From the IMG/VR virus record IMGVR_UViG_3300050025_000577: a stretch of 64,000 bases of DNA. One strand, 5' to 3'. The notes under the pieces were generated by a model, which saw nothing but the letters and a program-made list of their open reading frames with translations, did not search any database and had not been told where the DNA came from. The position numbers and the translations under genes are program-made. Every line of letters starts with the position of its first letter. The stretch's first letter is position 1. This DNA comes from a virus. Below are positions 6,137-35,739 of this stretch, piece by piece.

Positions 6137-6174
6137 AAAGCTTGAGCCGCCAGGCATCCGGCGGCTCAAGCTTT
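6137..6174 (-). terminator. Perfect 15-bp hairpin upstream of the ligase gene
   Basis: AAAGCTTGAGCCGCC-8 nt-GGCGGCTCAAGCTTT; ends in a T run on the minus strand. Confidence 0.6.
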
Positions 6175-14717: not shown

Positions 14718-14962
14718 AGCGTCGCCTGCGTGAGCTTGATTTCATTAGGCCTGGCAGGGCGGATCGCTTCCAGCGCCCGAAAGACCCAGTCAATAAATTT
14801 ATATCGGTCTGCATGGATGACCGTCCACTCTTCGCGAACATAGTCATACGATCGATCTTCGGGAGCGATGGCAGTCTTGAAGCGGGCAAGATCATCTTGA
14901 AAACGAGGCCGCTTGATCTGTACTCTCAAGGTCGTGGAATTGATCGCGTGAACAGATAACAT
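14711..14962 (-). CDS. Small HARP-like protein
   Basis: FKTAIAPEDRSYDYVREEWTV resembles the HARP 'R.yD...k.W' motif; GGAGG RBS. Confidence 0.5.
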   Translation of the reverse strand: MLSVHAINSTTLRVQIKRPRFQDDLARFKTAIAPEDRSYDYVREEWTVIHADRYKFIDWVFRALEAIRPARPNEIKLTQATLW

Positions 14963-15008
14963 GGTGACCTCCAAATCACCAAAGCGCCGTTAGGCGCCTG
15001 GTGATGGA

Positions 15009-15671
15009 TTACAAGGAGAATGTTTGGAGCCAGTAATTGGGGATGTTGTGGACCAACCGGTGTGGCTTGGCAACGCCTTGAGCGATCTCGCGGACGGTGT
15101 TTCCTATATGACCAGCGGCAATTGCTGCTGTGAAGAACGTGGCCTTCTCGGTGCAAGGAGCATCCGGGACACTATCATCCGTTATGCTCATGAGATGATG
15201 ACTATACGCATCGGCGTTTTCAACCTTATTGGGAACCAGGAAATGTTGATATTCCATAGCTCCCATTCGCGCATCAAGGTAAAAAGACCAGCGGCTATTG
15301 GGGTTGCATAGCGCAATCCAGATTTGCTGGCGAGCGAGGATGCTGTCGACCGCGGAGATGACCAGCGTGGAACGCAGTTCGCTATCGGGACCGATCCGTT
15401 CTTCGTGCCCGAACGGGAACACATCATCGGAATATTCCATCAGGGTCGCGCCAAGCGCCATCACCTTTGGCTTTCCGATATCGGATACTTTATGCAATTG
15501 CGTTGCGATGTTCTCTTCGCTGACCGTGTCGTCGTCGTACATGGCAATTGCTCGAACGCCCATCTTCGCCAGCATGAGCGCGGTGATCGCGCCGATCCCT
15601 CCGGCGCCGATGACCGTGGCGCTAAAGCCCGTAGGGATGTTGTAGATATTCTGGTGTCTTACATGGTTCAT
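15009..15671 (-). CDS. E1-like ThiF/MoeB-family adenylyltransferase
   Basis: GAGGIG, YDDDTVSEENIATQ, GKPKV, AVDSILAR, LDARMG; candidate catalytic Cys in DAPCTEKAT; no CxxC pairs. Confidence 0.9.
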   Translation of the reverse strand: MNHVRHQNIYNIPTGFSATVIGAGGIGAITALMLAKMGVRAIAMYDDDTVSEENIATQLHKVSDIGKPKVMALGATLMEYSDDVFPFGHEERIGPDSELRSTLVISAVDSILARQQIWIALCNPNSRWSFYLDARMGAMEYQHFLVPNKVENADAYSHHLMSITDDSVPDAPCTEKATFFTAAIAAGHIGNTVREIAQGVAKPHRLVHNIPNYWLQTFSL

Positions 15672-16354
15672 CGTTTGCCTCCATGGAACCTGTTGAGCAT
15701 GCCGCCGAGAAACGAGGTTTGAACGACGTCTTCCTCGTCCTCGTCATCCCAGCTTCCTTCTTCTTCCTCGTCGAGATCGTCATCTCCGTCCAGGCCGAGA
15801 TATGCGTCAGGATCATCGTCCCAGTCGTTTTCCATTTCGGACAGACCACCGCGGCGATTGGAATGCTCGGAAATCAGCTCGAAGATATTCCGCGAGGCCT
15901 CGAGTGCGAAGGACGGTTCAACGTTCAAATGCGCTGTGGCTCCATTTGGGCCATACGTGTCATAACGACCCACCCACCCCAGTGGAGTGCGGACAATGGA
16001 AATGGACCAGCCGACCAGTTCAGGCATGGAATTTCCAAGAGGCTCCCTGCGGCAGGTGTTGTCGTCCGTGCCGGACCAGTTGTGCATCCCGGGAATCCCG
16101 TTTCCCATTGGATGCCGATGGAACCATAACTTCATCTTGCGGGCATCCGGACGCTGTATGACCTCCAGGATCTTCCTGGATGGGATCTCGGTCCATGTAT
16201 AGGTGCCCACGTCCAGGATGACCACGTCATATACATGGAAGATCTGATGCTCACGGTCGAGATCCACGAAGCCGAAGCCGGAGAATTCATTGCGGGTCTG
16301 GCTGGCATAGGTCTCCAGCTTCAGCATGACCAGCGGGTCAAGGACGATCTTCAT
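15668..16354 (-). CDS. JAB/MPN+ metalloprotease (deubiquitinase-like) with acidic tail
   Basis: E23 (NEFSG), H79-x-H81 (WFHRHP), S94-x-x-D97 (WSGTD); D/E-rich C-terminus. Confidence 0.85.
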   Translation of the reverse strand: MKIVLDPLVMLKLETYASQTRNEFSGFGFVDLDREHQIFHVYDVVILDVGTYTWTEIPSRKILEVIQRPDARKMKLWFHRHPMGNGIPGMHNWSGTDDNTCRREPLGNSMPELVGWSISIVRTPLGWVGRYDTYGPNGATAHLNVEPSFALEASRNIFELISEHSNRRGGLSEMENDWDDDPDAYLGLDGDDDLDEEEEGSWDDEDEEDVVQTSFLGGMLNRFHGGKR

Positions 16355-17031
16355 GCTTCCTCCGTTGTGGGAAAATCGAGGTTGCGAATGAACGACAACA
16401 CAGAGCCTGCGTCATACCGGCTGACATACATCTGCAAAAGCCGGAAGAGTTCCGGGATGTCCGGAATATCCAGCAGTACGCGAATGGCCGGACCAAAACC
16501 GCCCCAGCACGTCGAAGCATGCTTGTCCAGGGGGTGCATGCCTTGCGGGTTGTTCTTTACAACATGGTGCGGATGGCGCAAGTTGGATTGCGGGAACTTG
16601 GTGGGGATGAAATGGAACGATCCGCTGTTCTGCGCGTCAAACGCATCCGCAGGAACATAGATCGCATACGGGCCCAGGAAATAGGTTTTCCCGTTGTCTT
16701 TGATCACAACCGGCTTGGTAACGCCGACCAGGTATTTCTTTAATTTGCCGTCGGCGCCTTTGTGCGCGACGGTCATGAACTTTTCGTAAGGAAGCACGCG
16801 CAGCCGGGTGAGTTCATACTCCGCGCCGACGCGTCCTTGAGAGTGACCGACTGTGGTGATAGCCAGGATGCGGGCATGAGCCGGTGCGCGTTTCTTGATG
16901 TATTCTTTGGCGCCGGCGGGATACTCGGCTGCACGTTCCTTCTCCCTCATCATGAACGCCCTGTAGATGTTCAGGACGCATTCCATGAATTTGGGATCCA
17001 CCGCCGCACGCTGGATGATTTTGATTGCCAT
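16351..17031 (-). CDS. Prokaryotic E2 (UBC-like) conjugating enzyme
   Basis: HPH (153-155) followed by TCWG (C175) and a helical end, the prokaryotic E2 signature; context between Ubl and JAB. Confidence 0.72.
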   Translation of the reverse strand: MAIKIIQRAAVDPKFMECVLNIYRAFMMREKERAAEYPAGAKEYIKKRAPAHARILAITTVGHSQGRVGAEYELTRLRVLPYEKFMTVAHKGADGKLKKYLVGVTKPVVIKDNGKTYFLGPYAIYVPADAFDAQNSGSFHFIPTKFPQSNLRHPHHVVKNNPQGMHPLDKHASTCWGGFGPAIRVLLDIPDIPELFRLLQMYVSRYDAGSVLSFIRNLDFPTTEEA

Positions 17032-17050
17032 GAGAGCCTCCGGGGAACGA

Positions 17051-17077
17051 AAACCCAGGCGTTAGCTGCCTGGGTTT
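17051..17077 (-). terminator. Terminator-like hairpin between Ubl and E2
   Basis: AAACCCAGGC-7 nt-GCCTGGGTTT followed by TCGTT on the minus strand. Confidence 0.6.
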
Positions 17078-17108
17078 CTGGCATCGGAAACGTAGTCAAG
17101 GGATTGCC

Positions 17109-17474
17109 CTAGGCTACGCTGCCTCCTTTGACGTTGCCGATCAACGTGACGGTCTGCCCGCCAGACACCAACGTCTCGAAGGAGATCGAATTACCGTCCA
17201 CATACGCATCCACCTGGCCGCTGTAGGTCAGGTTGGCGCGGACAACCAAATCGCGCAACGCGGCGGGTTCGTTCACCGGGATGTACCGCGGTTCCGCCCC
17301 GCTGGTCAGGATGGTGACGATGGTTGCGGGATCGATGTGATTGTCTTCGAGGAAATTCTCATCCCCGGTGTCTTCCGGCATCTCCGGCTCGGACGTATTC
17401 ATATCGTTCCCAGGCACGGGAGCCGCGGTGTCGCTGGTTTCATCGCCGAGAGTTGGATCAAACTGGTCTGTCAT
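17109..17474 (-). CDS. Ubiquitin-like (beta-grasp) protein ending VKGG-SVA
   Basis: Acidic ~45-aa leader, then a beta-grasp-sized domain (VTIL..LRDLV..YVDG..LVSGGQTVTLIGNVKGG); GGAGG RBS. Confidence 0.8.
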   Translation of the reverse strand: MTDQFDPTLGDETSDTAAPVPGNDMNTSEPEMPEDTGDENFLEDNHIDPATIVTILTSGAEPRYIPVNEPAALRDLVVRANLTYSGQVDAYVDGNSISFETLVSGGQTVTLIGNVKGGSVA

Positions 17475-17499
17475 TAGAGCCTCCAATTGGAATATCCGC

Positions 17500-17528
17500 A
17501 GTATACGCGGGTTTGGAATAGTTGTCAA
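17500..17528 (-). promoter_or_regulatory. Sigma70-type promoter of the Ubl operon with operator
   Basis: TTGACA (17528-23), 17 bp, TATACT (17505-00); TTGGAATAGT at 17513-22 in the spacer. Confidence 0.75.
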
Positions 17529-17600
17529 GCATATGATGTACAATTATTCCGTTTTGAATTACAATGAAACCAGCGCCGAAAGGCATCTGGAAGGAATTCA

Positions 17601-26452: not shown

Positions 26453-26856
26453 AATGACGTTTTCAAGGCACAGATTTTTACATGTCATTTTACCCCCCCG
26501 CTATGCGAAGAAATTGCTTTCATGCGTCAGGTATATAGTTACCCTAAATATTATTGTGGTGAGTTTGTACATCTTTTATTCAAAGCAAACAAAGATATTA
26601 TAAAATCTAAGCACCCCATTGCAGGATTAAGAGTTGAAGACTTTGAATCAACTCTTGAATGGAAAAAACTGGAGAATTACACTATGAAAGAAGAAAATAA
26701 AAGACGCAAGAAGATCAAACATCCCGCGGTCTACAAACCAGAAGATTTGATATAGTAAGAATTTATAGTTACCAAAAATAGTGCCGTCAGGCATGTGGCG
26801 TTCCTTGAGGCACACAAAAAAAAGGAGTAAGTGCTTGCGCACCTACTCCTTTTGTA

Positions 26857-28530
26857 TTACAGGACTGCCAGGAATTCTTTGGCTTGCGGAATGTTCGCCA
26901 GAACCGCCTTGAGCCTGGTCTTGGTCTCTTCGGTCAAGGCCAACTCGTTGTTCTTTGCCTTGCGTGTGGCGACCCACCAGTCAATGCGGCGTTCCTTCTC
27001 GACCAGCACCAAACCCATCTTATCCCCACGAATGGCTTTGATGTGTTCCTGCGGACGAGGAACGCACAACGGAGCCTTCTGCCAGAATGCGCGCATGGCT
27101 TGCTTGCGATCATTCGTGCGCAGATATTCCTTGTTGTAAGCATCCGCTGCTTCCGAAGACATTGCGAAGCGCCAGGCTGCCCATGCGCTCTCATCGGCTT
27201 CCTGGAATGTCGCGCCGTTCGCCAGCGCCTGCAAATACGCCATATTCCACGAGCGCGTCTGCATTGGGTTGACGTGATACTCCGGCATTTTCTCCGCCAG
27301 CATCCGAAGCGTTACTTGATCGTAACGCTCAATGTCGCTTTCCGTTGTCGGAAACACGCCGTTCGGACTGGAGTCGTTGATCAGCTCGACCAGGTCATCC
27401 TGCCAGGCTTCGATGTACTGGATCAGCCCTGGGCGGAAATCAGATGCGATCAAACCGTACCCATCCTGCGCGATCACATCTTCACCGGTTTCTTCCAATG
27501 ATCCTGTGGTCGCGACCAGGAGCGCCACGGCTGCCGCCGTTGTGATGTCCACCGCTTCCAGGCGCTCGATTTCATTCAGCAAATCCGTGTATTCATCGCT
27601 GGCAGTCAGCGCAATACGGAATTCCTTGTACCAGTTCTGCTGGTTGATTTTCAGGATCTTCATGCGCTCGAAGATTTCACTGCGACGCTTGTTGAAGGCT
27701 GCCACTAGTTTCATGGCTTGATAGTACGCTGGCCGATCAATGACCAGTTCGCGCTCTTGCAAGGTTGCGGGAACGAAGCCGCGGTCTTCTCCCGGCTCTT
27801 CTTCATCTTCGCCGCCAATGAACTGCCGGTTGGCCGCCAGGAAAGCCTTGACGGTATTGTCATCCCAGCCGAGATGTTCACGGCATTGTTCAGCCTGCCG
27901 CTCCAGTTCCGTGCCTGGAGTGGAAATGATCGGGGCGACGCCGTCAAATCCATCTCCATCATCCTTTCCAGGCATGAAGATGATTTGCAGGAGCTTCAAC
28001 TCGCCTTCGTCACGGCTATTGATCGGATGGCGCTCTGGTAGACTGGCAATCAATTGCTCGAAGGTCAATTCGGTCTCGCCAGTGTATGCGTCTATGTAAT
28101 CGGCGGTTTCGAGATCGCCGTCCCCCAATGTCTGTTCCAGATACAGCTCTCTGAGCGTCTCGGTTGCCAGGAGCGAGCTGGACACTTTCAATCCGGCTGC
28201 TGCGCGCAAAGCCGCCGAATATTTGCGATACAGATCCGCCGGCTTGGTCGCTTTGGTATTCCCCTTCTTGCGCTCTGCTGCCGCCTGATCCATCTCCAGG
28301 CTGGCCGCATTGACCAGAGCGAGGACTGCCTTGCCGAGCAACTGACGGGCCGTGGAAGCCCATACCGTCTTTGTGACACCGGCATCAGTCAACGTCTTGG
28401 TAATCACACTGAAATACACCAACGGATCGTTTCCACACTTGAGGAAATTGTTGGCTTGAAGAATGGCGATTGGAGTTTCGCCAATGTGGACATCATCCAC
28501 CAAACTGCCTGTGACTTGCATCGGGTACAT
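26857..28530 (-). CDS. Large hypothetical phage protein (557 aa)
   Basis: Long ORF with RBS; no motif recognised. Confidence 0.75.
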   Translation of the reverse strand: MYPMQVTGSLVDDVHIGETPIAILQANNFLKCGNDPLVYFSVITKTLTDAGVTKTVWASTARQLLGKAVLALVNAASLEMDQAAAERKKGNTKATKPADLYRKYSAALRAAAGLKVSSSLLATETLRELYLEQTLGDGDLETADYIDAYTGETELTFEQLIASLPERHPINSRDEGELKLLQIIFMPGKDDGDGFDGVAPIISTPGTELERQAEQCREHLGWDDNTVKAFLAANRQFIGGEDEEEPGEDRGFVPATLQERELVIDRPAYYQAMKLVAAFNKRRSEIFERMKILKINQQNWYKEFRIALTASDEYTDLLNEIERLEAVDITTAAAVALLVATTGSLEETGEDVIAQDGYGLIASDFRPGLIQYIEAWQDDLVELINDSSPNGVFPTTESDIERYDQVTLRMLAEKMPEYHVNPMQTRSWNMAYLQALANGATFQEADESAWAAWRFAMSSEAADAYNKEYLRTNDRKQAMRAFWQKAPLCVPRPQEHIKAIRGDKMGLVLVEKERRIDWWVATRKAKNNELALTEETKTRLKAVLANIPQAKEFLAVL

Positions 28531-28599: not shown

Positions 28600-29073
28600 T
28601 TAGATTACGGTTTCAGCGACCGGCTGCTCTTCCAGCGGGATGTCAGCCTGAGCATCGCCGACATCATTGGTTCCGTCGTCCTTGCCGTTTTCCAGCAAGC
28701 GCAGGGACGTGGTGTGGCTGGTCTTGATGCTCTCGTAAGCATCGCCGTTTTCCGGCTGATAGCGTTCGGCCAACAGGTCAGCCAGGCTGAAGGTGACTTC
28801 GACCACTGCGCCCTTGCGGATGTTCATGGTGCGCACTTTGTCGGCTTGCGGACCCCACACCGCGAACTCGATGATGTTGCCTTTGCGCTCCCAGACCTTC
28901 TGTCCATTATCGTCGATCACTTCCTGGCCGTTCTGTTTCTTGGTCCACGAGCGATCGAAAGCGACACGCACGTTGACAACATTGGTGCCTTCCTTTTTGG
29001 TCGAGCGCGGCGCACGGGTTACGTGACCTTTGGCCGACACCATCGCGTCTTCGTTGGAAAGTTTGATTTGCAT
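28600..29073 (-). CDS. ssb: Single-stranded DNA-binding protein
   Basis: OB fold: GHVTRAP..VVNVRVA..EFAVWGPQAD..KGAVVEV; acidic tail. Confidence 0.8.
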   Translation of the reverse strand: MQIKLSNEDAMVSAKGHVTRAPRSTKKEGTNVVNVRVAFDRSWTKKQNGQEVIDDNGQKVWERKGNIIEFAVWGPQADKVRTMNIRKGAVVEVTFSLADLLAERYQPENGDAYESIKTSHTTSLRLLENGKDDGTNDVGDAQADIPLEEQPVAETVI

Positions 29074-29099
29074 TGTATACTCCTGTTGAGAATGATTTT

Positions 29100-29142
29100 G
29101 AGCTTGCGCTCAATGAACCAAACGCCGTAAGGCATCTGGTTC
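29100..29142 (-). repeat. 43-nt two-hairpin leader motif, copy 1
   Basis: GAACCAGATGCC-TTAC-GGCGTTTGGTTC-ATT-GAGC-GCAA-GCTC. Confidence 0.8.
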
Positions 29143-29175
29143 TTTTGGTTTATTCAGTTAGCTTACAAGTGGCTT

Positions 29176-29204
29176 ATTATTATTCCAACCCCCTGTTTTG
29201 TCAA
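29176..29204 (-). promoter_or_regulatory. Sigma70-type promoter upstream of ssb
   Basis: TTGACA, 17 bp, AATAAT; TTGGAATAA overlaps the spacer/-10. Confidence 0.6.
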
Positions 29205-29230
29205 TCGGCACATATACGGCACGAACGAGC

Positions 29231-29659
29231 CTAATGGCCTAGTCGTGCCAGTAGCACTTCACGTGGTTCCTGAACGATCCTGACATTGTTCAGGCCAGCC
29301 AGAAGATTTCTTGCATTCAGGATCGGCTCGCGCAGATGAGGCGCTTTGATCTTGTAATTCTGCGTAAGCCACCCCACGACATCTTCGCAATCTGTATGCA
29401 GCACGACCTGCTCTTTATTGCCGCGCGCCTGCAATTCAGCAATGTACAAGAGAGCATAAAAGGCGCTCATGATCTCGGCCATCGGGCTGGTCTGATGCTC
29501 AAAGTCTTTCAAGTCAGGATGGAATACCGCCATTTCCCGATCCTGAAAGTGGAAGGAATGCGGCTTATCGTTCACATCCACAGCGACTGAGCCATACATT
29601 TCCGCATCGGGACGGCCATTATTTTTGCACCCGCCGTCGGAAAATACATCGATTTTCAT
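29231..29659 (-). CDS. RNase HI-like protein
   Basis: VFSDGG..NG, AEIMSA, LHTDCEDV, terminal LGH. Confidence 0.8.
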   Translation of the reverse strand: MKIDVFSDGGCKNNGRPDAEMYGSVAVDVNDKPHSFHFQDREMAVFHPDLKDFEHQTSPMAEIMSAFYALLYIAELQARGNKEQVVLHTDCEDVVGWLTQNYKIKAPHLREPILNARNLLAGLNNVRIVQEPREVLLARLGH

Positions 29660-29774
29660 TGGATCTCCTTTGAGCCTTTTTGAGGTGAATTCGAGCCAGA
29701 ATTTGGGACTTTTGAGAGTAATGAGAGAGAAAGAAGGGCGAACGATATAGACCCGTCTCTCTCTTCACGCAGAT

Positions 29775-30128
29775 TTAGAACGGGCAATTGCCATCGAGCA
29801 TGCCCTCGACATACGAAATCCCACTTTTCCGATGCAGCCACTCAAACGCTGCCCGAATGTCGGCTTCGGTGTAGAGCGTCATCGACAAAGTATCCAACGT
29901 CGGAACGTTGCATCGCTCCCCCTTTTCCATCATGACGATGGACAAGTAACCTTGAGGGGTAAACGCCAGGTGCAGGACGCGCTTGCGACGATACTTCCTG
30001 CAAGCATTCAACGCTTCCAGCATGATCGCGGTTGTATCGGCGCTGTACTGCCCACGCTCAGAAGCAAAGATGCACGCTTCGGTGTGCGGGGAAACAGGAT
30101 CAACATCAGTAAACGATTTCAGTTTCAT
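29775..30128 (-). CDS. Hypothetical phage protein
   Basis: GGAGG RBS, ATG at 30128. Confidence 0.6.
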   Translation of the reverse strand: MKLKSFTDVDPVSPHTEACIFASERGQYSADTTAIMLEALNACRKYRRKRVLHLAFTPQGYLSIVMMEKGERCNVPTLDTLSMTLYTEADIRAAFEWLHRKSGISYVEGMLDGNCPF

Positions 30129-30153
30129 ACGAAACCTCCATAGGTTGAAATGC

Positions 30154-30196
30154 GAGCCGCAGCTCAACGAAACAAACGCCGTGAGGCATCTGTTTC
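30154..30196 (-). repeat. 43-nt two-hairpin leader motif, copy 2
   Basis: GAAACAGATGCC-TCAC-GGCGTTTGTTTC-GTT-GAGC-TGCG-GCTC; compensatory C-G to A-T change relative to copy 1. Confidence 0.8.
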
Positions 30197-30204
30197 GTCG
30201 CAAT

Positions 30205-30516
30205 TCACAATGGACATCCGGCTGCAAACCAGTCAACGATCACATCCCCATGACAGGCTTCCGGCTTGCAGAAGCAAACCAACCGCTTATCTTTAAGTTC
30301 ACGCACACGCCGCAGATACTCAGCATCTTCGTGAATGCGTTTCCAGAACATGCGCTTGAATGCTGCAATACAGCCAGCACGATCGTGATGTACTTTGCAT
30401 ATCGAGCACCACCCAATAGGATGCGGGTTACCAAAGTACCCGTCTTCCCCATGCCCTTTGCGCCCGATATACACATCGCCAGATTTGCGATCTCGGATGT
30501 TGATGACTTTGCACAT
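30205..30516 (-). CDS. DUF4326-like protein
   Basis: DVYIGR..GYFGNPH..LVCFCKPEACHGDV. Confidence 0.8.
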   Translation of the reverse strand: MCKVINIRDRKSGDVYIGRKGHGEDGYFGNPHPIGWCSICKVHHDRAGCIAAFKRMFWKRIHEDAEYLRRVRELKDKRLVCFCKPEACHGDVIVDWFAAGCPL

Positions 30517-30519
30517 GTG

Positions 30520-30642
30520 CTATCCACCGAACGCCTTGAGCGTGTCGAAGCCGGCTGCCAGCATAACGAACACTGGATGCAGAATGATGGAAACAGCGAC
30601 GAGAGCAAGCACAAGCACAATTACAGGAATTAAGTTACGCAT
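30520..30642 (-). CDS. Small membrane peptide
   Basis: 40 aa, hydrophobic, RBS GGAG. Confidence 0.45.
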   Translation of the reverse strand: MRNLIPVIVLVLALVAVSIILHPVFVMLAAGFDTLKAFGG

Positions 30643-30666
30643 TGGATCTTCTCCAGAGTAGGATAT

Positions 30667-30709
30667 GAGCAGACGCTCAACGAACGAAACGCCGTTAGGC
30701 ATCTGGTTC
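30667..30709 (-). repeat. 43-nt two-hairpin leader motif, copy 3
   Basis: GAACCAGATGCC-TAAC-GGCGTTTCGTTC-GTT-GAGC-GTCT-GCTC. Confidence 0.8.
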
Positions 30710-30720
30710 GCCTGGAGAAG

Positions 30721-31068
30721 TCACACTTCATCCCAGCACATATCGTCACGTTCTCGGATGCTCGGGATTGCGTACACACTGTCGCTTTGAGTAGCCATTT
30801 CGAGAGCGCGAGCCGGATCAATTCCCAGATGATCCATCTGCGCACGAATACGCTCCTCGTTGTACTCATCACAGCACTCTTCGCAGTAGCCGCCGAAGCA
30901 ACGGGTCCAACCATGGACTTTGCAATAGCCTTCGAGATAGCACTCATGACCAGATGAACGCGAGAGCTCATCAGCCATGAATTGAGCTTCTTCAAACAAC
31001 GTACCTTCATCAACGACGTGAACCTCAGGAACAAAACTGGCTTCTACAATGCGGTATTCGGTGGACAT
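30721..31068 (-). CDS. Cys-containing hypothetical phage protein
   Basis: CKVHG..CFGGYCEECC. Confidence 0.55.
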   Translation of the reverse strand: MSTEYRIVEASFVPEVHVVDEGTLFEEAQFMADELSRSSGHECYLEGYCKVHGWTRCFGGYCEECCDEYNEERIRAQMDHLGIDPARALEMATQSDSVYAIPSIRERDDMCWDEV

Positions 31069-31334
31069 GGCAAATGCCTTTCAGTTGGAATGGGATACAG
31101 GTTTCCCTGTTCACAAAAACTGCGCCGTAGGCATCTTGCGTGCTGGGTGAACAAGAGTTCATGGTGTGCAGTGCCAAAGCCCGCGGCAGCGGGCCGGGAA
31201 GACACCATGGTGAACACGGACGGTGGGGCGTTCACTGGCGAACGACAAAAAATAAGAGATAAATACCCCTGTACCGCAACAGTCCAAAAGTCGACTTGAA
31301 AAAATCGAAAGGGTCAAAAAGTCGAACCAGGCTT

Positions 31335-31841: not shown

Positions 31842-31980
31842 AAGCCTCCGAAAGTTTCCGACAACAGAAACAATCTAACAGAACATTTGTTCTATTGACT
31901 GGAAGAGATGAGTTCCAGTTGGGGATTATAAACACATTTGATATTTTTGGAAAGATTGATTTCCAAATGGTGCGCAACCC

Positions 31981-32009
31981 TTGACAGACTGGAACAGTGC
32001 CGCTACAAT
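31981..32009 (+). promoter_or_regulatory. Sigma70-type promoter of the late operon, in an AT-rich divergent control region (31842-32121)
   Basis: TTGACA, 17 bp, TACAAT; CTGGAACAGT in the spacer; ACTGGAA-N8-TTCCAGT at 31898-919. Confidence 0.75.
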
Positions 32010-32121
32010 CCGAATGCAAACGAAGCGGCGAGGAATTAAATTACATAGATACTCGATAAAACAACTTTATTAAGTATTCACGTAATTTAATCGTCCGCCC
32101 AAAATTGAAAAGGAGTTTTTT

Positions 32122-32505
32122 GTGAACCCAACGAGCGACATTCTCTCCACCCTGCTCCAGGCCCTGCTGCCCTTGCTGCTGACCGCCCTGGTGGGTATCG
32201 GATCGTATTATCTGCATCAGTTCAACGCATACATGTCCACCAAGGCCGGCGCTGACCACTGGAATTTCCTCAAGTCGCTGGCTGCGACCGTTGTGGCTGC
32301 CCTGGAACAAAGCCCGGCCTATCGTGACTGGGACGGCTCCAAGAAGAAAGAAGCGGCCATGATGCAACTGATCCAACTGGCCGCCAAATACGGCATCACG
32401 ATCGGCTCTGAACAACTGAGCAACCTGATCGAGGAAGCCGTCCAGTTGATGAAGGTGGATCTCGGCGATATCGCTCCATCTCCCCTGTCCATCCCAGCCC
32501 AATAA
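32122..32505 (+). CDS. Holin, LL-H-like family
   Basis: N-terminal TM; TVVAALEQ..GSKKKEAAM..QLSNLIEEAV. Confidence 0.75.
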   Translation: MNPTSDILSTLLQALLPLLLTALVGIGSYYLHQFNAYMSTKAGADHWNFLKSLAATVVAALEQSPAYRDWDGSKKKEAAMMQLIQLAAKYGITIGSEQLSNLIEEAVQLMKVDLGDIAPSPLSIPAQ

Positions 32506-33038
32506 TGGACCTGAGTGGCTCCTGGAAGATGTTGGCAGCCATTGCACAGGAGAGACTGAAGCACAACAAGACGTCGCATCACGTTTCCGAGTACGGAACG
32601 GACATTGAACTGATCGGGGCTGCCGGCGAACTGGCAGCCCGCCGGTTCCTGAACCTGGAGGAAACCCTGCATATCCGTTTTGACAACGGGGTGGATATGC
32701 GAGTCGGTGGCTACACCATCGATGTCAAAGCCACCATGCTTACAAGGAACGTCCGCTATCGTTACTTGCAGTGGCCTTATTGGAAACCGGTCCGGTCCAG
32801 CATCATTCTGCTGACCGCGGTATCCATACCCAATCAGAAAGCCATCGTCATTGGGTACGCTTTCAAACACGAGATCGAGAGAGCTCCCATCAACCTCTTG
32901 AGAGACTTTCCCTGTCACGAGATCCCGGTTGCCCGTCTGCATCCGGCAAGCGAGTTGTTGACCTTACAACATGCCTTCCTGCCCAAAGCCCCGGCGCGTC
33001 GTCGCGCCAAACATCACTCGCCTGGCCCGGCAGCGTGA
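32505..33038 (+). CDS. PD-(D/E)XK-like nuclease
   Basis: GAAGELA..GVDM..IDVKAT. Confidence 0.6.
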   Translation: MDLSGSWKMLAAIAQERLKHNKTSHHVSEYGTDIELIGAAGELAARRFLNLEETLHIRFDNGVDMRVGGYTIDVKATMLTRNVRYRYLQWPYWKPVRSSIILLTAVSIPNQKAIVIGYAFKHEIERAPINLLRDFPCHEIPVARLHPASELLTLQHAFLPKAPARRRAKHHSPGPAA

Positions 33039-33279
33039 CGGCTATTGTTTGTATGGTCTGTGGCACAAGGATGGCTGCTCGAACGATCTGGACGGTCATC
33101 ACATTATTCCGATCGGCGTGGGAGGGCCGGATATTCTGGAAAATGTAATCAGCCTGTGTCGGAAACACCACACATTGGCTGAAGCAAGAAGGATCGAGCC
33201 GGATGAGCTCAGAAGGCTCATGGGTGTTTATCACGGCTACCAGTACGAAGAAAATGGTTTTCCAATTTTGGAGGCGTAA
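32971..33279 (+). CDS. HNH endonuclease, packaging-associated
   Basis: RDGYC..HHIIPIGVGG..ENVISLCRKHH. Confidence 0.85.
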   Translation: MPSCPKPRRVVAPNITRLARQRDGYCLYGLWHKDGCSNDLDGHHIIPIGVGGPDILENVISLCRKHHTLAEARRIEPDELRRLMGVYHGYQYEENGFPILEA

Positions 33280-34262
33280 TGGAAGAGAACGGAGTTGTAG
33301 ACCTGCAAAAGCTGGACGAAGCGGAAATGCAGGCGATCGCACGATTTGAGCGCCGGTTTATATTCACCAACCCGAAACCGGTCGCGCCAAAGGCTTTCTC
33401 GATCCGGGATCTTGGGATTGAGTTTCCTTTGACGATCATCACCGGCATCGCGGCCATCGTCCAGGCGGCCATGCGAACCGGCTACAAGTTCTTTGAATTG
33501 GCGTCGCGCAACGGCATGGGCATTGGAAGTTGGGTGGACGGCGCATCCGCCATGATTGGCGTGGAAGGCTTTATCGCCATGATCGGCTTCACCCGCGCCC
33601 GCGCTCAAGGCCGGGAATTGATCAACGATGGTAAGTTGAAGATCAGCGCCACCAAGGAGTGGATCGGATTGATCATCGCCCTGGCGATCTCCGTCACCAC
33701 CGGTCTGGCGCAAAGCATAACGGGCACCACGATCCCGATGGCATTCCAGGGATTCGTAGATTGGCTGGTCGTGGTCTTCCTGGGCGTGGGTGCTTCCATC
33801 CTGGCGTATTTTGCCGGCGAGATCTCCGGCGTGATGGCTGTGCGGGCCGAGATGATCTATCTTTCCGGCCTCGGAAAGTTCGAGATGGAACTGAAAGTCT
33901 GGAACGACACCCTCAAGGCAGCCTGGGAGAAGTCGGACGAGAAAGCGTATCTGCACGTGGATCTCAAAGGATTGACCACGATTGCCCGCGGCAGGTACCG
34001 GTCTACGGGCGTTCGCCCGTTCGTTCGCTCCGCCGAACGAACGAACGGCCCAAGCGAAGTGGAGACCAGGATACTGGCTTACTTGGAAAAGAATTCCACG
34101 CTTGAGTTTATTCCTGGTCCGTCCCAGATAGCTCGCGATGAAGGCGTTTCCAAAAGCTACGCGTCCGAGATCATCAAGAAGTACCGTGCCTCTCACCCGC
34201 TCCAGGCAGGTGAACCCACGGACTCGCACACACAGGAGTTGGATGTCGTTGCTGTCCAATAA
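33279..34262 (+). CDS. Multi-TM membrane protein with C-terminal HTH
   Basis: About four hydrophobic segments; GPSQIARDEGVSKSYASEII. Confidence 0.7.
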   Translation: MEENGVVDLQKLDEAEMQAIARFERRFIFTNPKPVAPKAFSIRDLGIEFPLTIITGIAAIVQAAMRTGYKFFELASRNGMGIGSWVDGASAMIGVEGFIAMIGFTRARAQGRELINDGKLKISATKEWIGLIIALAISVTTGLAQSITGTTIPMAFQGFVDWLVVVFLGVGASILAYFAGEISGVMAVRAEMIYLSGLGKFEMELKVWNDTLKAAWEKSDEKAYLHVDLKGLTTIARGRYRSTGVRPFVRSAERTNGPSEVETRILAYLEKNSTLEFIPGPSQIARDEGVSKSYASEIIKKYRASHPLQAGEPTDSHTQELDVVAVQ

Positions 34263-35739
34263 CGACCAGGTCATATTGCAAGCCGCCCTTCGCGAGAAAG
34301 GCGGCTTTCACCTGGCTACCCAGTGGTTCTTTGGTTGGGAACCGCTGTCGTATCAGTATGTCTGGCATCATATCCCTGTCCTGAATACCACATTTCTTGG
34401 CGGGATTGGCTCAGGAAAAACTGCCGGAACATCGGCTTCTTATGCGACCGATTGTTTGTCCATTCCTCATTTTAGGGCGCTCAATGCTTCTGTCACCGCC
34501 AAGCAAGCCGAGCTGGCTTACGACATGGTGGATGCCTGGTCGGAAAACAATCCACGTTTCAAGCGGTTGATCGTGGAACGCACGCTGCGCCCTTATCCCA
34601 TTTTGAAATTCTACAATGGTTCCGTTTACGAATTCCGCACCGCCGGCCAGGGAGCGAAGTTCATCCGCGGCCATGAGTATGACCGGATCAACTATGACGA
34701 AGGCGAGTTGGATGAAGACGGCGAAGCGGTCAAGGTTTTGCGCGGTCGTCTGCGTGGAACACGCCCTGATGGAACGACCCGCATGGCGCGCCTGGATGTC
34801 ACGGGTACGCCTGCGCCGGTCGAATGGTTCAGGACGCGCTTCGAGATCGGCCTTCCGGGCCACGAACGAGCCACGCTGGAAACGCTGAAGCATTACTTCT
34901 CCATGCGCGTGCGCACCCGGGACAATACTCGTCTGACCAACGAGCAGATCGAGCTGATGGAAGCGGAGTTCCCGGCGGAATACGCGAAGATCGAGCTGGA
35001 CGCCGAATTTCCGGATTACGGGATGAGCACCTTCCCGCATAATCACATTCGCGCCTGCACGGATCCCAGCTTGAATGACGAAATGACGGAAGCTGTCTCA
35101 GAAGCGACGCATCCCAAAGCGGGATATAACATCGAAGAATGGCCTCGAGTGGGGACAGTCTTGATGGAGTTTCCTGTGGAGCTTGGTCACGTGTACGTGC
35201 AAGCCGGCGATCCTGGCACCGAAAATCCCCCCAAACGAAATGCGGCCTGCGTGATGGTATTCGACGTGACAAAGGTCCCATCGCAGATGGTGTATTTCCA
35301 CTGGGTATCCGGGAAAGGTTCTTACACTCCATTCCTGAATTCCTTCAAGTACGCCATGGAGAAATATGTCCCTGAGGCCAAGGGCATGGATGTCACCGGA
35401 ACTCAAAAGGCGCTGGACGAACTCGGCTTCGAGGCGTTCGGGTTGACCATCGATCCCTTGTATTTCGGCGGCCTCAAAGACACCCTGATCAATTCCCTGT
35501 CTTTGGCGCTGGCCGGCCACACACTGCGCTACCCAAGAATTGAAGGATTGAACAAGCAACTTATGGCTTACCACCGCGAAGATGACAAGAATGAGGAACA
35601 GGACCTGGTGATGACCCTGGCAATGATCGCTTACCTGAAACGATTTGTGAATCCAGAAACTGCTAAGGAAAAGCGCGGTTCGGTTCCACCTCCCCGCAAC
35701 CGCCATCACAGAACTGTTCGTAATGGAGTACGACGATAA
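34243..35739 (+). CDS. terL: Terminase large subunit
   Basis: Walker A GGIGSGKT, Walker B INYDE, nuclease AGDPG and QDLVMTLA. Confidence 0.9.
   Translation: MSLLSNNDQVILQAALREKGGFHLATQWFFGWEPLSYQYVWHHIPVLNTTFLGGIGSGKTAGTSASYATDCLSIPHFRALNASVTAKQAELAYDMVDAWSENNPRFKRLIVERTLRPYPILKFYNGSVYEFRTAGQGAKFIRGHEYDRINYDEGELDEDGEAVKVLRGRLRGTRPDGTTRMARLDVTGTPAPVEWFRTRFEIGLPGHERATLETLKHYFSMRVRTRDNTRLTNEQIELMEAEFPAEYAKIELDAEFPDYGMSTFPHNHIRACTDPSLNDEMTEAVSEATHPKAGYNIEEWPRVGTVLMEFPVELGHVYVQAGDPGTENPPKRNAACVMVFDVTKVPSQMVYFHWVSGKGSYTPFLNSFKYAMEKYVPEAKGMDVTGTQKALDELGFEAFGLTIDPLYFGGLKDTLINSLSLALAGHTLRYPRIEGLNKQLMAYHREDDKNEEQDLVMTLAMIAYLKRFVNPETAKEKRGSVPPPRNRHHRTVRNGVRR

Follow-up and report, generated by a model that had tools for sequence, protein, structure and literature searches.

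The early genes of a divergent tailed phage, represented here by the 64,000-nt IMG/VR record IMGVR_UViG_3300050025_000577 (the whole stretch analysed, hereafter the window), are preceded by a reiterated module of two RNA hairpins, whose sense sequence lies on the minus strand. The module is a structured cis-acting element of the sense-strand RNA that is kept at gene boundaries. Covariation, strand asymmetry and syntenic conservation in relatives bear out the initial annotation, which had proposed such an element in three gene leaders; those three leaders stand, while the extent of the family was understated, since at least five leader copies as well as terminator-type derivatives are present in the window. 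The motif is new, with neither an Rfam match nor a description found in the literature, and it belongs to a kind that is already known, namely a clade-specific hairpin cassette reiterated before early phage genes.

The 43-nt module consists of a 12-bp hairpin 1 capped by a UNAC tetraloop, an RUU linker, and a hairpin 2 of the form GAGC-N4-GCUC. The three minus-strand copies read exactly as they had been annotated. Copy 1 (29142..29100, minus strand) is GAACCAGATGCC-TTAC-GGCGTTTGGTTC-ATT-GAGC-GCAA-GCTC, or as RNA GAACCAGAUGCC-UUAC-GGCGUUUGGUUC-AUU-GAGC-GCAA-GCUC; copy 2 (30196..30154, minus strand) is GAAACAGATGCC-TCAC-GGCGTTTGTTTC-GTT-GAGC-TGCG-GCTC, or GAAACAGAUGCC-UCAC-GGCGUUUGUUUC-GUU-GAGC-UGCG-GCUC; copy 3 (30709..30667, minus strand) is GAACCAGATGCC-TAAC-GGCGTTTCGTTC-GTT-GAGC-GTCT-GCTC, or GAACCAGAUGCC-UAAC-GGCGUUUCGUUC-GUU-GAGC-GUCU-GCUC. 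Hairpin 1 forms 12/12 pairs in copies 1 and 2, one G·U and one U·G among them, whereas a C·C mismatch at the fifth pair leaves 11 pairs in copy 3, and the 12-bp stem that had been assigned to all copies therefore applies to the first two only. The compensatory C-G to A-T change noted in hairpin 1 of copy 2 is real, and the distances of 42, 41 and 40 nt from the end of hairpin 1 to the start codon were confirmed for copies 1, 2 and 3 against the ATGs at 29073, 30128 and 30642, respectively. The three leaders are composed as follows, with bit scores from covariance model R1, which describes the full module (a further model, R2, was also used, for the hairpin-1-only copy 4 below), and with SD standing for the Shine-Dalgarno sequence.

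30682..30709, minus strand: hairpin 1 of copy 3, 11 bp plus C·C, UAAC loop, 72.3 bits, 12 nt past the stop of gene B.
30667..30681, minus strand: GUU linker and hairpin 2 (GAGC-GUCU-GCUC) of copy 3; a linker U pairs with the A after GCUC.
30640..30666, minus strand: G-poor tract AUAUCCUACUC of copy 3, SD GGAG, and ATG (30642) of a 40-aa membrane peptide.
30169..30196, minus strand: hairpin 1 of copy 2, 12 bp, UCAC loop, 72.7 bits, 9 nt past the DUF4326 stop.
30154..30168, minus strand: GUU linker and hairpin 2 (GAGC-UGCG-GCUC) of copy 2.
30126..30153, minus strand: tract GCAUUUCAAC of copy 2, SD GGAGG, and ATG (30128) of a 117-aa protein.
29176..29204, minus strand: sigma-70-type promoter TTGACA-17-AATAAT upstream of copy 1, kept in relative G001; relative L044 has TTGACA-17-TACAAT there.
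29115..29142, minus strand: hairpin 1 of copy 1, 12 bp, UUAC loop, 68.7 bits.
29100..29114, minus strand: AUU linker and hairpin 2 (GAGC-GCAA-GCUC) of copy 1, extendable to UUGAGC/GCUCAA.
29071..29099, minus strand: tract AAAAUCAUUCUCAAC of copy 1, SD AGGAG, and ATG (29073) of the gene for single-stranded DNA-binding protein (SSB, 28600-29073).

The 17-nt core of the motif occurs exactly three times in the window; at <=3 mismatches five matches were obtained, all on the minus strand, against 0.75 expected, and 0/100 shuffles reached five. On the sense strand the 43-mers of copies 1, 2 and 3 fold at -24.4, -22.5 and -17.0 kcal/mol (z -6.3, -4.8 and -3.2), while the antisense folds reach only -17.0, -14.5 and -13.4 kcal/mol, 4-8 kcal/mol weaker, because a G·U pair of the sense strand becomes A·C. 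The same asymmetry was seen in the strand test with R1, which gave 68-73 bits for sense and 12-17 bits for antisense; G·U pairs stand at invariant as well as covarying positions on the sense strand only, and would be A·C on the opposite strand.

Relatives were found by scans with the exact core. They include G001 (IMG/VR contig 3300014839_001411, whose terminase is 83% identical to that of the window), several peat metagenome contigs, and G003, a 198-kb contig of a metagenome-assembled genome (MAG) labelled 'uncultured Chloroflexia bacterium', taken as binned, in the prophage of which the motif lies. The covariance-model scan that the initial annotation had suggested yielded strong copies in all three genomes: three in the window, with one hairpin-1-only and one degenerate copy; three in G001, with one hairpin-1-only copy; and five in G003, inside 2.4 kb, with one hairpin-1-only copy, all of them in gene direction. 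The relatives carry 4-7 copies each at syntenic positions. Across nine distinct full copies, 96.5% of the cells pair and six pairs show double changes, a covariation score matched by 0/500 shuffles; when the partner was slid by 1-3 columns, pairing fell to 33-48%. Fifteen hairpin-1 copies gave a similar result (93.3% paired, seven pairs with double changes, 0/500 shuffles matching the score, slid controls 29-46%).

The two halves of hairpin 1 vary in different ways. Variation is essentially confined to five basal pairs, which exchange G-C/A-U/G·U, A-U/G-C, C-G/A-U/G·U and C-G/U-A, whereas the apical seven pairs (A-U, G·U, A-U, U·G, G-C, C-G, C-G) are almost fixed in the window, G001 and G003. 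Compensated exceptions at the apex are few, namely A-U to G-C three times, and U·G to U-A or C-G. The resulting apex, AGAUGCC-UNAC-GGCGUUU, is almost invariant, and it has been kept although identity is only ~35% between the SSB proteins encoded alongside and 51-67% between the 557-aa proteins encoded downstream of SSB. The loop is UNAC in 26/27 four-base loops across four lineages, with all four bases at N; the single non-UNAC four-base loop is UACC in G001, and the same site is UAAC in one metagenomic variant. In hairpin 2, by comparison, the loop is free (GCAA, UGCG, GUCU, CUAG, 6-8 nt), and the stem is kept or swapped for another stem.

Placement is likewise regular. Hairpin 1 starts 3-17 nt past the preceding stop codon or, for SSB, 17-30 nt past the promoter start site, and it ends 39-50 nt before the start codon in the full module and 3-4 nt before the SD in hairpin-1-only copies. 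The motif is always oriented with the genes and is confined to the early/replication arm. The core TGCCTNACGGCR occurs seven times in the ~12 kb of the G003 prophage, compared with ten times in the other 5.2 Mb of the MAG (control pattern: four), and the covariance models gave no convincing host copy in this MAG; a host repeat was rejected on these two grounds. MAG contig C2 has three near-matches to the hairpin core inside a 17-kb stretch (~40.8-57.5 kb), which may be a second, related prophage.

More distant relatives were reached through the 557-aa protein, which has 110 homologues in a 1.84-billion representative library; these led to the contigs L042 and L044, for which DNA was available. 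The L044 homologue is 35-39% identical, and L044 shares the gene order RNase H-like protein, SSB, 557-aa homologue and a ubiquitin-like operon ending in E1. Seven UNAC hairpins lie in intergenic gaps of its replication arm. Their sub-apical pairs vary (AUUUGCC with U·U pairs; AGGUGCC/GGCACUU; AGCUGCC/GGCAGCU; GUC/GAC replacing GCC/GGC), and the loops (UCAC, UGAC, UAAC) and the closing C-G are unchanged despite this. Two alternative classes of hairpin 2, ACNGG-GNRA-CCNGU and GUUUCYGA-YG-UCRGARAC, and the tract AUC(C/U)CAUU...CAA are common to L044 and the window lineage, and the whole leader cassette is therefore old. L042 has CCAGAUGCCUGACGGC inside a GC-rich hairpin of 9 bp that ends in a U6 tail; GUU comes next, and then hairpin 2, the tract, SD and ATG. 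IMG/VR searches with SSB and the 557-aa protein returned G001 alone, and no motif was seen in the SSB leader of a further contig, L043. Two contigs recovered with a loosened core pattern (L035, L036) are AT-rich and unrelated, with an unpaired lower stem and a 2-nt hairpin-2 loop, and were judged chance matches.

Beyond the three full copies, the window holds further members of the family, two of which contain the recurrences of the apex GCC-TNAC-GGC that had been pointed out earlier and were found at 14995..14986 (TAAC) and 26792..26783 (TGAC).

14975..15005, minus strand: copy 4, hairpin 1 only, AUCACCAGGCGCC-UAAC-GGCGCUUUGGUGAU with one bulged U, 33.9 bits (model R2).
31089..31144, minus strand: degenerate copy, AGAUGCC-UAC-GGCG with bulges, then ACAGG-GAAA-CCUGU; 8.8 bits only.
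26772..26800, minus strand: terminator-type relative, CAUGCC-UGAC-GGCAC then UAUUUUUGG, directly past the strong terminator of the 557-aa gene.
6138..6173, minus strand: terminator-type chimera before a ligase gene, a 14-bp terminator with a U-run after it.
17051..17077, minus strand: terminator-like relative, AAACCCAGGC-AGCUAAC-GCCUGGGUUU then UCGUU (U-run), before the gene starting at 17031.

Copy 4 carries compensatory U·G to C-G and A-U to G-C changes, begins 4 nt past the stop of the E1 gene, ends 3 nt before the SD of the gene starting at 14962, and has syntenic counterparts in G001, G003 and L044. The tract of the degenerate copy, AUCCCAUUCCAAC, precedes gene B (ATG 31068), and the same hairpin-2 class and tract occur in L044. 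The relative at 26772-26800 corresponds to GAGAUGCC-UGAC-GGCAUUC-UUUUUAUUU in G001, where this combination of apex and U-run ends the unit of SSB and the 557-aa gene as it does in the window. In the 6138-6173 chimera, the arms AAGCUUGAGCCGCC/GGCGGCUCAAGCUU hold hairpin-2 arm sequences and the loop GGAUGCCU is the hairpin-1 core.

Searches against known families gave no assignment. At gathering scores, only a tRNA was matched by Rfam 15 in the whole window, and the motif had no match even at E<=10 over 28950-31250; the Rfam search proposed with the initial annotation thus leaves the motif novel, and it is no known riboswitch, ribozyme or phage RNA. Ribozymes were not indicated by Rfam, and no CUGANGA/GAAA core was seen by eye in the alignment. 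No arrayed copies that would suggest a CRISPR-repeat mimic were found with the covariance models and the core pattern in the 5.2-Mb G003 MAG, which is possibly incomplete. Pfam and PHROGs searches with 50 window proteins returned no RNA-binding protein, RNA polymerase, Cas6-like or N-like protein.

Several simple explanations were also tried and rejected. In-silico removal of hairpin 1 or of its 5' arm leaves the predicted accessibility of the SD unchanged, so the module is not a simple SD-sequestering switch. An alternative pairing, in which the linker and a hairpin-2 arm would bind a distal CUCAAC/ACUCAG box, lacks support and can be drawn for no more than about half of the copies, and complementarity of the tract or hairpin to host 16S rRNA is limited to 6-8-nt, chance-level matches. 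An analogy with integron attC sites (GTTGAGC fits GTTRRRY) failed because the order of core and inverse core is reversed, and a promoter with TTGAGC as -35 was discarded for lack of a correctly spaced -10 in any copy.

We tentatively read hairpin 1 as a recognition hairpin for a dedicated, sequence-specific factor that would set the translation, processing or stability of the early cistrons, a proposal to which we give a considerable chance, if one somewhat below even. The module is transcribed with the early/replication genes. Hairpin 1, which folds autonomously under its UNAC cap, is followed on the mRNA by RUU(G) and the smaller hairpin 2; a tract poor in G then leads to the ribosome-binding site and the start codon. 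Pairing is all that is required of the basal half of hairpin 1, while the apical half (A-U, G·U, R-Y, U·G, G-C, C-G, C-G) and the U-N-A-C positions are kept in sequence. Sequence selection on apex and loop, with selection for pairing alone at the base, is the signature of a specific protein-read hairpin, as in coat-protein operators, boxB and iron-responsive elements (IREs); a generic stabiliser or terminator would let its loop drift, as hairpin 2 does, and a dedicated factor is preferred for this reason. From the conservation of the apical sequence we infer that the apex is where a single trans-acting factor docks, recognising both sequence and shape; this factor, most likely a protein, might be a regulator or a dedicated endonuclease. 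Each copy would then act as an operator or punctuation mark, through which the putative factor co-ordinately sets the fate of the cistrons it separates, whether by controlling how the downstream gene is translated, by cutting the flanking messages and protecting their 3'/5' ends, or both.

Several observations weigh against this proposal. No candidate factor was found, and the shared early proteins (SSB, the RNase H-like protein, the 557-aa protein and the 117-aa protein) have no recognisable RNA-binding domain. In the 6138-6173 chimera, in L042 and in L044 (~4150), another hairpin of greater stability takes up the core in its loop or 3' arm, and several relatives have U-tails resembling ordinary terminators; an operator accounts for displaced cores and U-tails no better than a generic hairpin lineage does. 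For the full module, whose position 39-50 nt upstream of the start codon is at or beyond the edge of the 30S footprint, direct steric repression is therefore not an obvious mechanism. In addition, the uniformity of sequence inside one genome could stem from duplication or gene conversion.

A further possibility, which we hold to be rather unlikely, is that the UNAC hairpins are cut-and-hold sites of a clade-encoded, sequence-specific RNA-binding nuclease or regulator, which would punctuate the early operon into individually controlled messages. The only conserved unknowns are the 117-aa protein, with its CRKYRRKR patch, and the 557-aa protein that always follows SSB, and the terminator-type copies might be switched on or off by the same factor.

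The strongest rival of a factor-read hairpin, itself improbable in our estimate though by no means negligible, is a generic cassette derived from a terminator and copied to many gene boundaries without any dedicated factor. Its copies would serve as leaky attenuators, 3'/5' stabilising hairpins and insulators between cistrons and, being short repeats, also as crossover points for module shuffling, and their uniformity would come from common descent and gene conversion. Such a role in shuffling has been described for PeSLs (promoter-early stem-loops), composite terminator/promoter stem-loops that mediate indels (PMC4122927, PMC2839356). The cassette account draws on the U-tailed members at operon ends or between genes (26772-26800, 6138-6173, 17051-17077, the terminal copy of G001, L042, and L044 at 4045), on the closeness with which hairpin 1 trails stop codons, and on the chimeric rearrangements of hairpin-1 and hairpin-2 pieces. 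Gene content also differs at motif boundaries: DUF4326 and gene B are missing from G003, extra small genes lie between the G003 copies, and before the RNase H-like gene the motif stands in G003 but a polypurine hairpin in the window and G001. However, in the three full copies the stem is trailed by two U only and not by a U-rich tract (AUUGAGC or GUUGAGC comes right after it), so these are poor intrinsic terminators; no promoter lies within the motif. Any stable loop should do for such a cassette, yet the loop is strictly kept while those of hairpin 2 drift, and an invariant apex above a stem base turned over by compensation is the opposite of what gene conversion of the whole repeat would produce.

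Processing by host RNase III, as in T7, is an explanation that we regard as unlikely: the polycistronic early RNA would be cut at each hairpin, which would leave a protective 3' hairpin upstream and free the downstream ribosome site. The intercistronic placement in an early operon and the sequence similarity of reiterated sites mirror the T7 R-sites, copies 2-4 starting 4-12 nt past a stop codon. Signals of the T7 type span about two turns of dsRNA helix (or stacked helices), or else have 11 bp or more between cut and loop together with helix on the far side of the cut. According to work on the E. coli enzyme, at least 11 bp are needed between cut and loop, and the sequence of the tetraloop is irrelevant (PMC1540722). 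Hairpin 1 offers 12 bp below its tetraloop. Its helix is imperfect (G·U, U·U, bulges) at 4-7 bp down from the loop, in the manner of internal loops that confine cleavage to a single strand (PMC1540722). This helix is, however, at the very lower limit (12 bp; copy 3 has 11) and does not continue as a lower stem past the putative cut, the region of the proximal box is the freely varying stem base, and a loop-indifferent enzyme (PMC1540722) leaves the strict conservation of UNAC unexplained. RNA-library contigs are uninterrupted across copies 1-3, which speaks at most weakly against cutting since these are contigs with possible DNA carry-over. The contigs bridging the copies are short and of low depth, strand, ends and level cannot be read from them, and they were counted neither for nor against processing. 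Relative to the window they show AT inserted after 29744 and 1-nt changes near 29795-29800, probably strain variants in the peat samples.

UNAC loops are reported to mimic the GNRA fold, and N peptides recognise the GNRA-like loop of boxB. The hairpin might be an antitermination signal that loads an N-like protein on the nascent RNA (nut-like) or binds RNA polymerase itself (put-like), an idea we consider quite improbable. Copy 1 does lie between a promoter and the terminator-like hairpin past SSB (28579-28553), with the 557-aa gene next; two hairpins joined by a short linker recall put, the order of a hairpin followed by a linear box recalls boxB-boxA of rrn, and the host rrn leader GAUCAUUGAAAAC is loosely like the tract of the motif (AAUCAUUCUCAAC). 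Yet 3-7 copies per operon stand at gene boundaries with constrained spacing to the start codon, not one per promoter, and the first full copies are downstream of the first terminator-like site (31345-31324), not ahead of it. The stem of 12 bp with a tetraloop differs from a 5-bp boxB with a pentaloop, no boxA consensus CGCUCUUA is present, and no gene for a small arginine-rich protein was found adjoining the motif. The argument from read-through, which the initial annotation had based on intra-operon terminators at 6137, 17051 and 36871, is weakened, since the first two are rearranged motif relatives and the third is an unrelated terminator in the plus-strand late operon. Furthermore, the long minus-strand region is broken up by several good sigma-70-type promoters of its own and its terminator-like sites are no commoner than in shuffles, so antitermination is not needed there. 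Among the three functions that had been offered without a choice (translational control, RNase processing and antitermination), none is confirmed here, and the case for the last is weakened.

A DNA-level element, either an operator palindrome or a hairpin extruded from single-stranded DNA for recombination, nicking or an N4-like promoter, is very improbable: the core is an imperfect palindrome conserved as sequence, and some relatives retain it though its pairing partner changes, but covariation of the flanking stem is unexpected for a duplex operator, the G·U pairs tie the hairpin to the sense strand, every copy is oriented with the genes, the template strand is the one used by N4-type promoters, and searches of the window revealed neither a phage RNA polymerase nor an HUH nuclease or integron integrase.

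No DNA similarity was found between the window and 50,697 deposited phages. A tyrosine integrase and an ImmA-like protease show a temperate lifestyle, and the hosts are peat-soil bacteria, probably Chloroflexota. The integrase gene (PF00589, 12175-13155, plus strand) is placed midway along the minus-strand replication arm, in the opposite orientation, and is kept in G001 (76%) and G003 (52%). A divergent control region (31842-32121) with back-to-back promoters, TTTCCA-17-TATAAT (minus strand, 31953..31925) and TTGACA-17-TACAAT (plus strand, 31981..32009), separates the early arm from the holin/HNH/terminase operon. The plus-strand late operon begins at 32122 and includes holin (PF09682), HNH, large terminase (34138-35739), portal and major head protein. 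Long minus-strand open reading frames (ORFs) at 32041-34274 are shadows; by conservation in G001 and G003 the plus-strand genes are real, namely 32122-32505 (holin), 32505-33038, 32971-33279 (HNH) and 33279-34262.

The early/replication arm runs leftward from the promoter at 31953..31925. It encodes, in order, gene A (168 aa), the terminator-like hairpin at 31345-31324, the degenerate copy, gene B (115 aa) and copy 3; then the 40-aa membrane peptide and DUF4326 (30205-30516), copy 2, the 117-aa protein, the polypurine hairpin and the RNase H-like protein; and finally the promoter at 29204..29176, copy 1, SSB, the terminator-like hairpin at 28579-28553, the 557-aa protein and its strong terminator. 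Copy 1 is the sole full copy with a promoter, which is separate from the motif and lies 34-62 nt upstream of hairpin 1; hairpin 1 is therefore near the 5' end of the SSB transcript. Upstream of the host 16S gene (L041, the G003 rrn leader) there are two sigma-70-type promoters and a boxA-like GAUCAUUGAAAAC, which speaks for applying the E. coli-type promoter consensus to this host.

The 557-aa protein (26857-28530, minus strand) belongs to no Pfam or PHROG family. Its gene lies directly downstream of SSB in the window, G001, G003, L042, L043, L044 and five further contigs, the homologue in G003 being split in two ORFs, and it looks like a conserved replication-module protein. The 117-aa protein (29775-30128, minus strand) has a conserved basic patch, ALN(A/C)CRKY(R/K), and occurs in all four lineages, each time preceded by a UNAC hairpin. 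Its AlphaFold2 model (predicted local distance difference test, pLDDT, 53) is too poor to search with or classify, nothing was found in the ESM Atlas, and a word-indexed homologue search gave one near-identical sequence and nothing else. In the leader of the RNase H-like gene (29660-29774, minus strand), a long polypurine/polypyrimidine hairpin (GAAGAGAGAGA.../...UCUUUCUCUCUC) replaces hairpin 1 and a GGCUCG-AAUUCACCUCAA tract is retained; the arrangement is the same in G001, and a UNAC hairpin stands there in G003 and L044. The ubiquitin-like/E2/JAB/E1 operons of the window (15009-17543) and L044 (9339-12192) both end in a hairpin-1-only UNAC hairpin.

Lineage-specific hairpins reiterated at early gene boundaries recur in phages, among them the start-associated sequences with their extended inverted repeats (SAS/ESAS), the PeSLs, and the UUCG hairpins of T4, and almost none has a demonstrated mechanism. 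The present motif is clean for experiment, with a structure proven by covariation, a recognition surface narrowed to seven base pairs and a UNAC tetraloop, and selection on the identity of this loop and not on that of the neighbouring hairpin. Its natural variants (full module, hairpin-1-only and U-tailed) provide ready-made controls. Identifying a reader would show post-transcriptional co-ordination of replication genes in a temperate phage of a poorly studied phylum and could yield a compact, orthogonal RNA-protein pair; should the hairpins indeed be cut-and-hold sites, they would be a natural counterpart of engineered Csy4/hairpin insulators.

SAS/ESAS were described in Cluster K mycobacteriophages (PMC3203893). 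Like them, the motif is reiterated, clade-specific and in one orientation, lies just upstream of the start codons of some non-structural genes, recurs at the same gene families across relatives, is virtually absent from the host genome, and is suspected of having a trans-acting factor; in both, an imperfect inverted repeat whose spacer varies precedes the ribosome site. There is, however, no sequence similarity between the two. The conserved part here is the apex with its UNAC tetraloop and there a 13-nt box overlapping the SD, RNA covariation has been shown here, and copy numbers are 4-7 per genome here as against 11-19 there.

Similar to the PeSLs of T4-type phages (PMC2839356, PMC4122927), the motif forms short, conserved stem-loop cassettes at early gene boundaries, some members being of the terminator type and others not, and relatives differ in gene content at these cassettes (window, G001 and G003; no breakpoint was mapped inside the motif). 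Unlike PeSLs, it contains no promoter (-35/-10 pair), its apex is constrained in sequence while its base covaries, and a role in recombination is only suggested. T4 also reportedly has intercistronic C(UUCG)G hairpins, which are said to have been described by Tuerk et al. in 1988; the loop of the present motif is UNAC and not the hyperstable UUCG. With the early RNase III signals of T7 (R0.3-R1.3) it shares sequence-related hairpins between early cistrons, a possible protective 3' hairpin, and helix imperfections at a fixed distance from the loop, whereas its 12-bp helix lacks a lower stem and bacterial RNase III sites lack a constraint on loop sequence.

Lambda nut and HK022 put likewise place a GNRA-like hairpin loop in the nascent early RNA, and put has the layout of two hairpins; the motif differs from both in its copy number, in standing at every gene boundary, in the length of its stem and the size of its loop, and in lacking a boxA consensus and an N-like gene. 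HK022 put consists of two specific stem-loops of ~65-70 nt just downstream of PL/PR, which act on RNA polymerase without a protein, while the motif is 43-50 nt long and reiterated. Finally, IREs and phage coat-protein/gp43-type operators offer a functional analogy. The motif has no homology to them, and its binding protein is hypothetical; it nevertheless has in common with these elements a fixed loop and upper stem, a covarying lower stem, and a location in untranslated regions in one or several copies, from where IREs and such operators control translation or stability.

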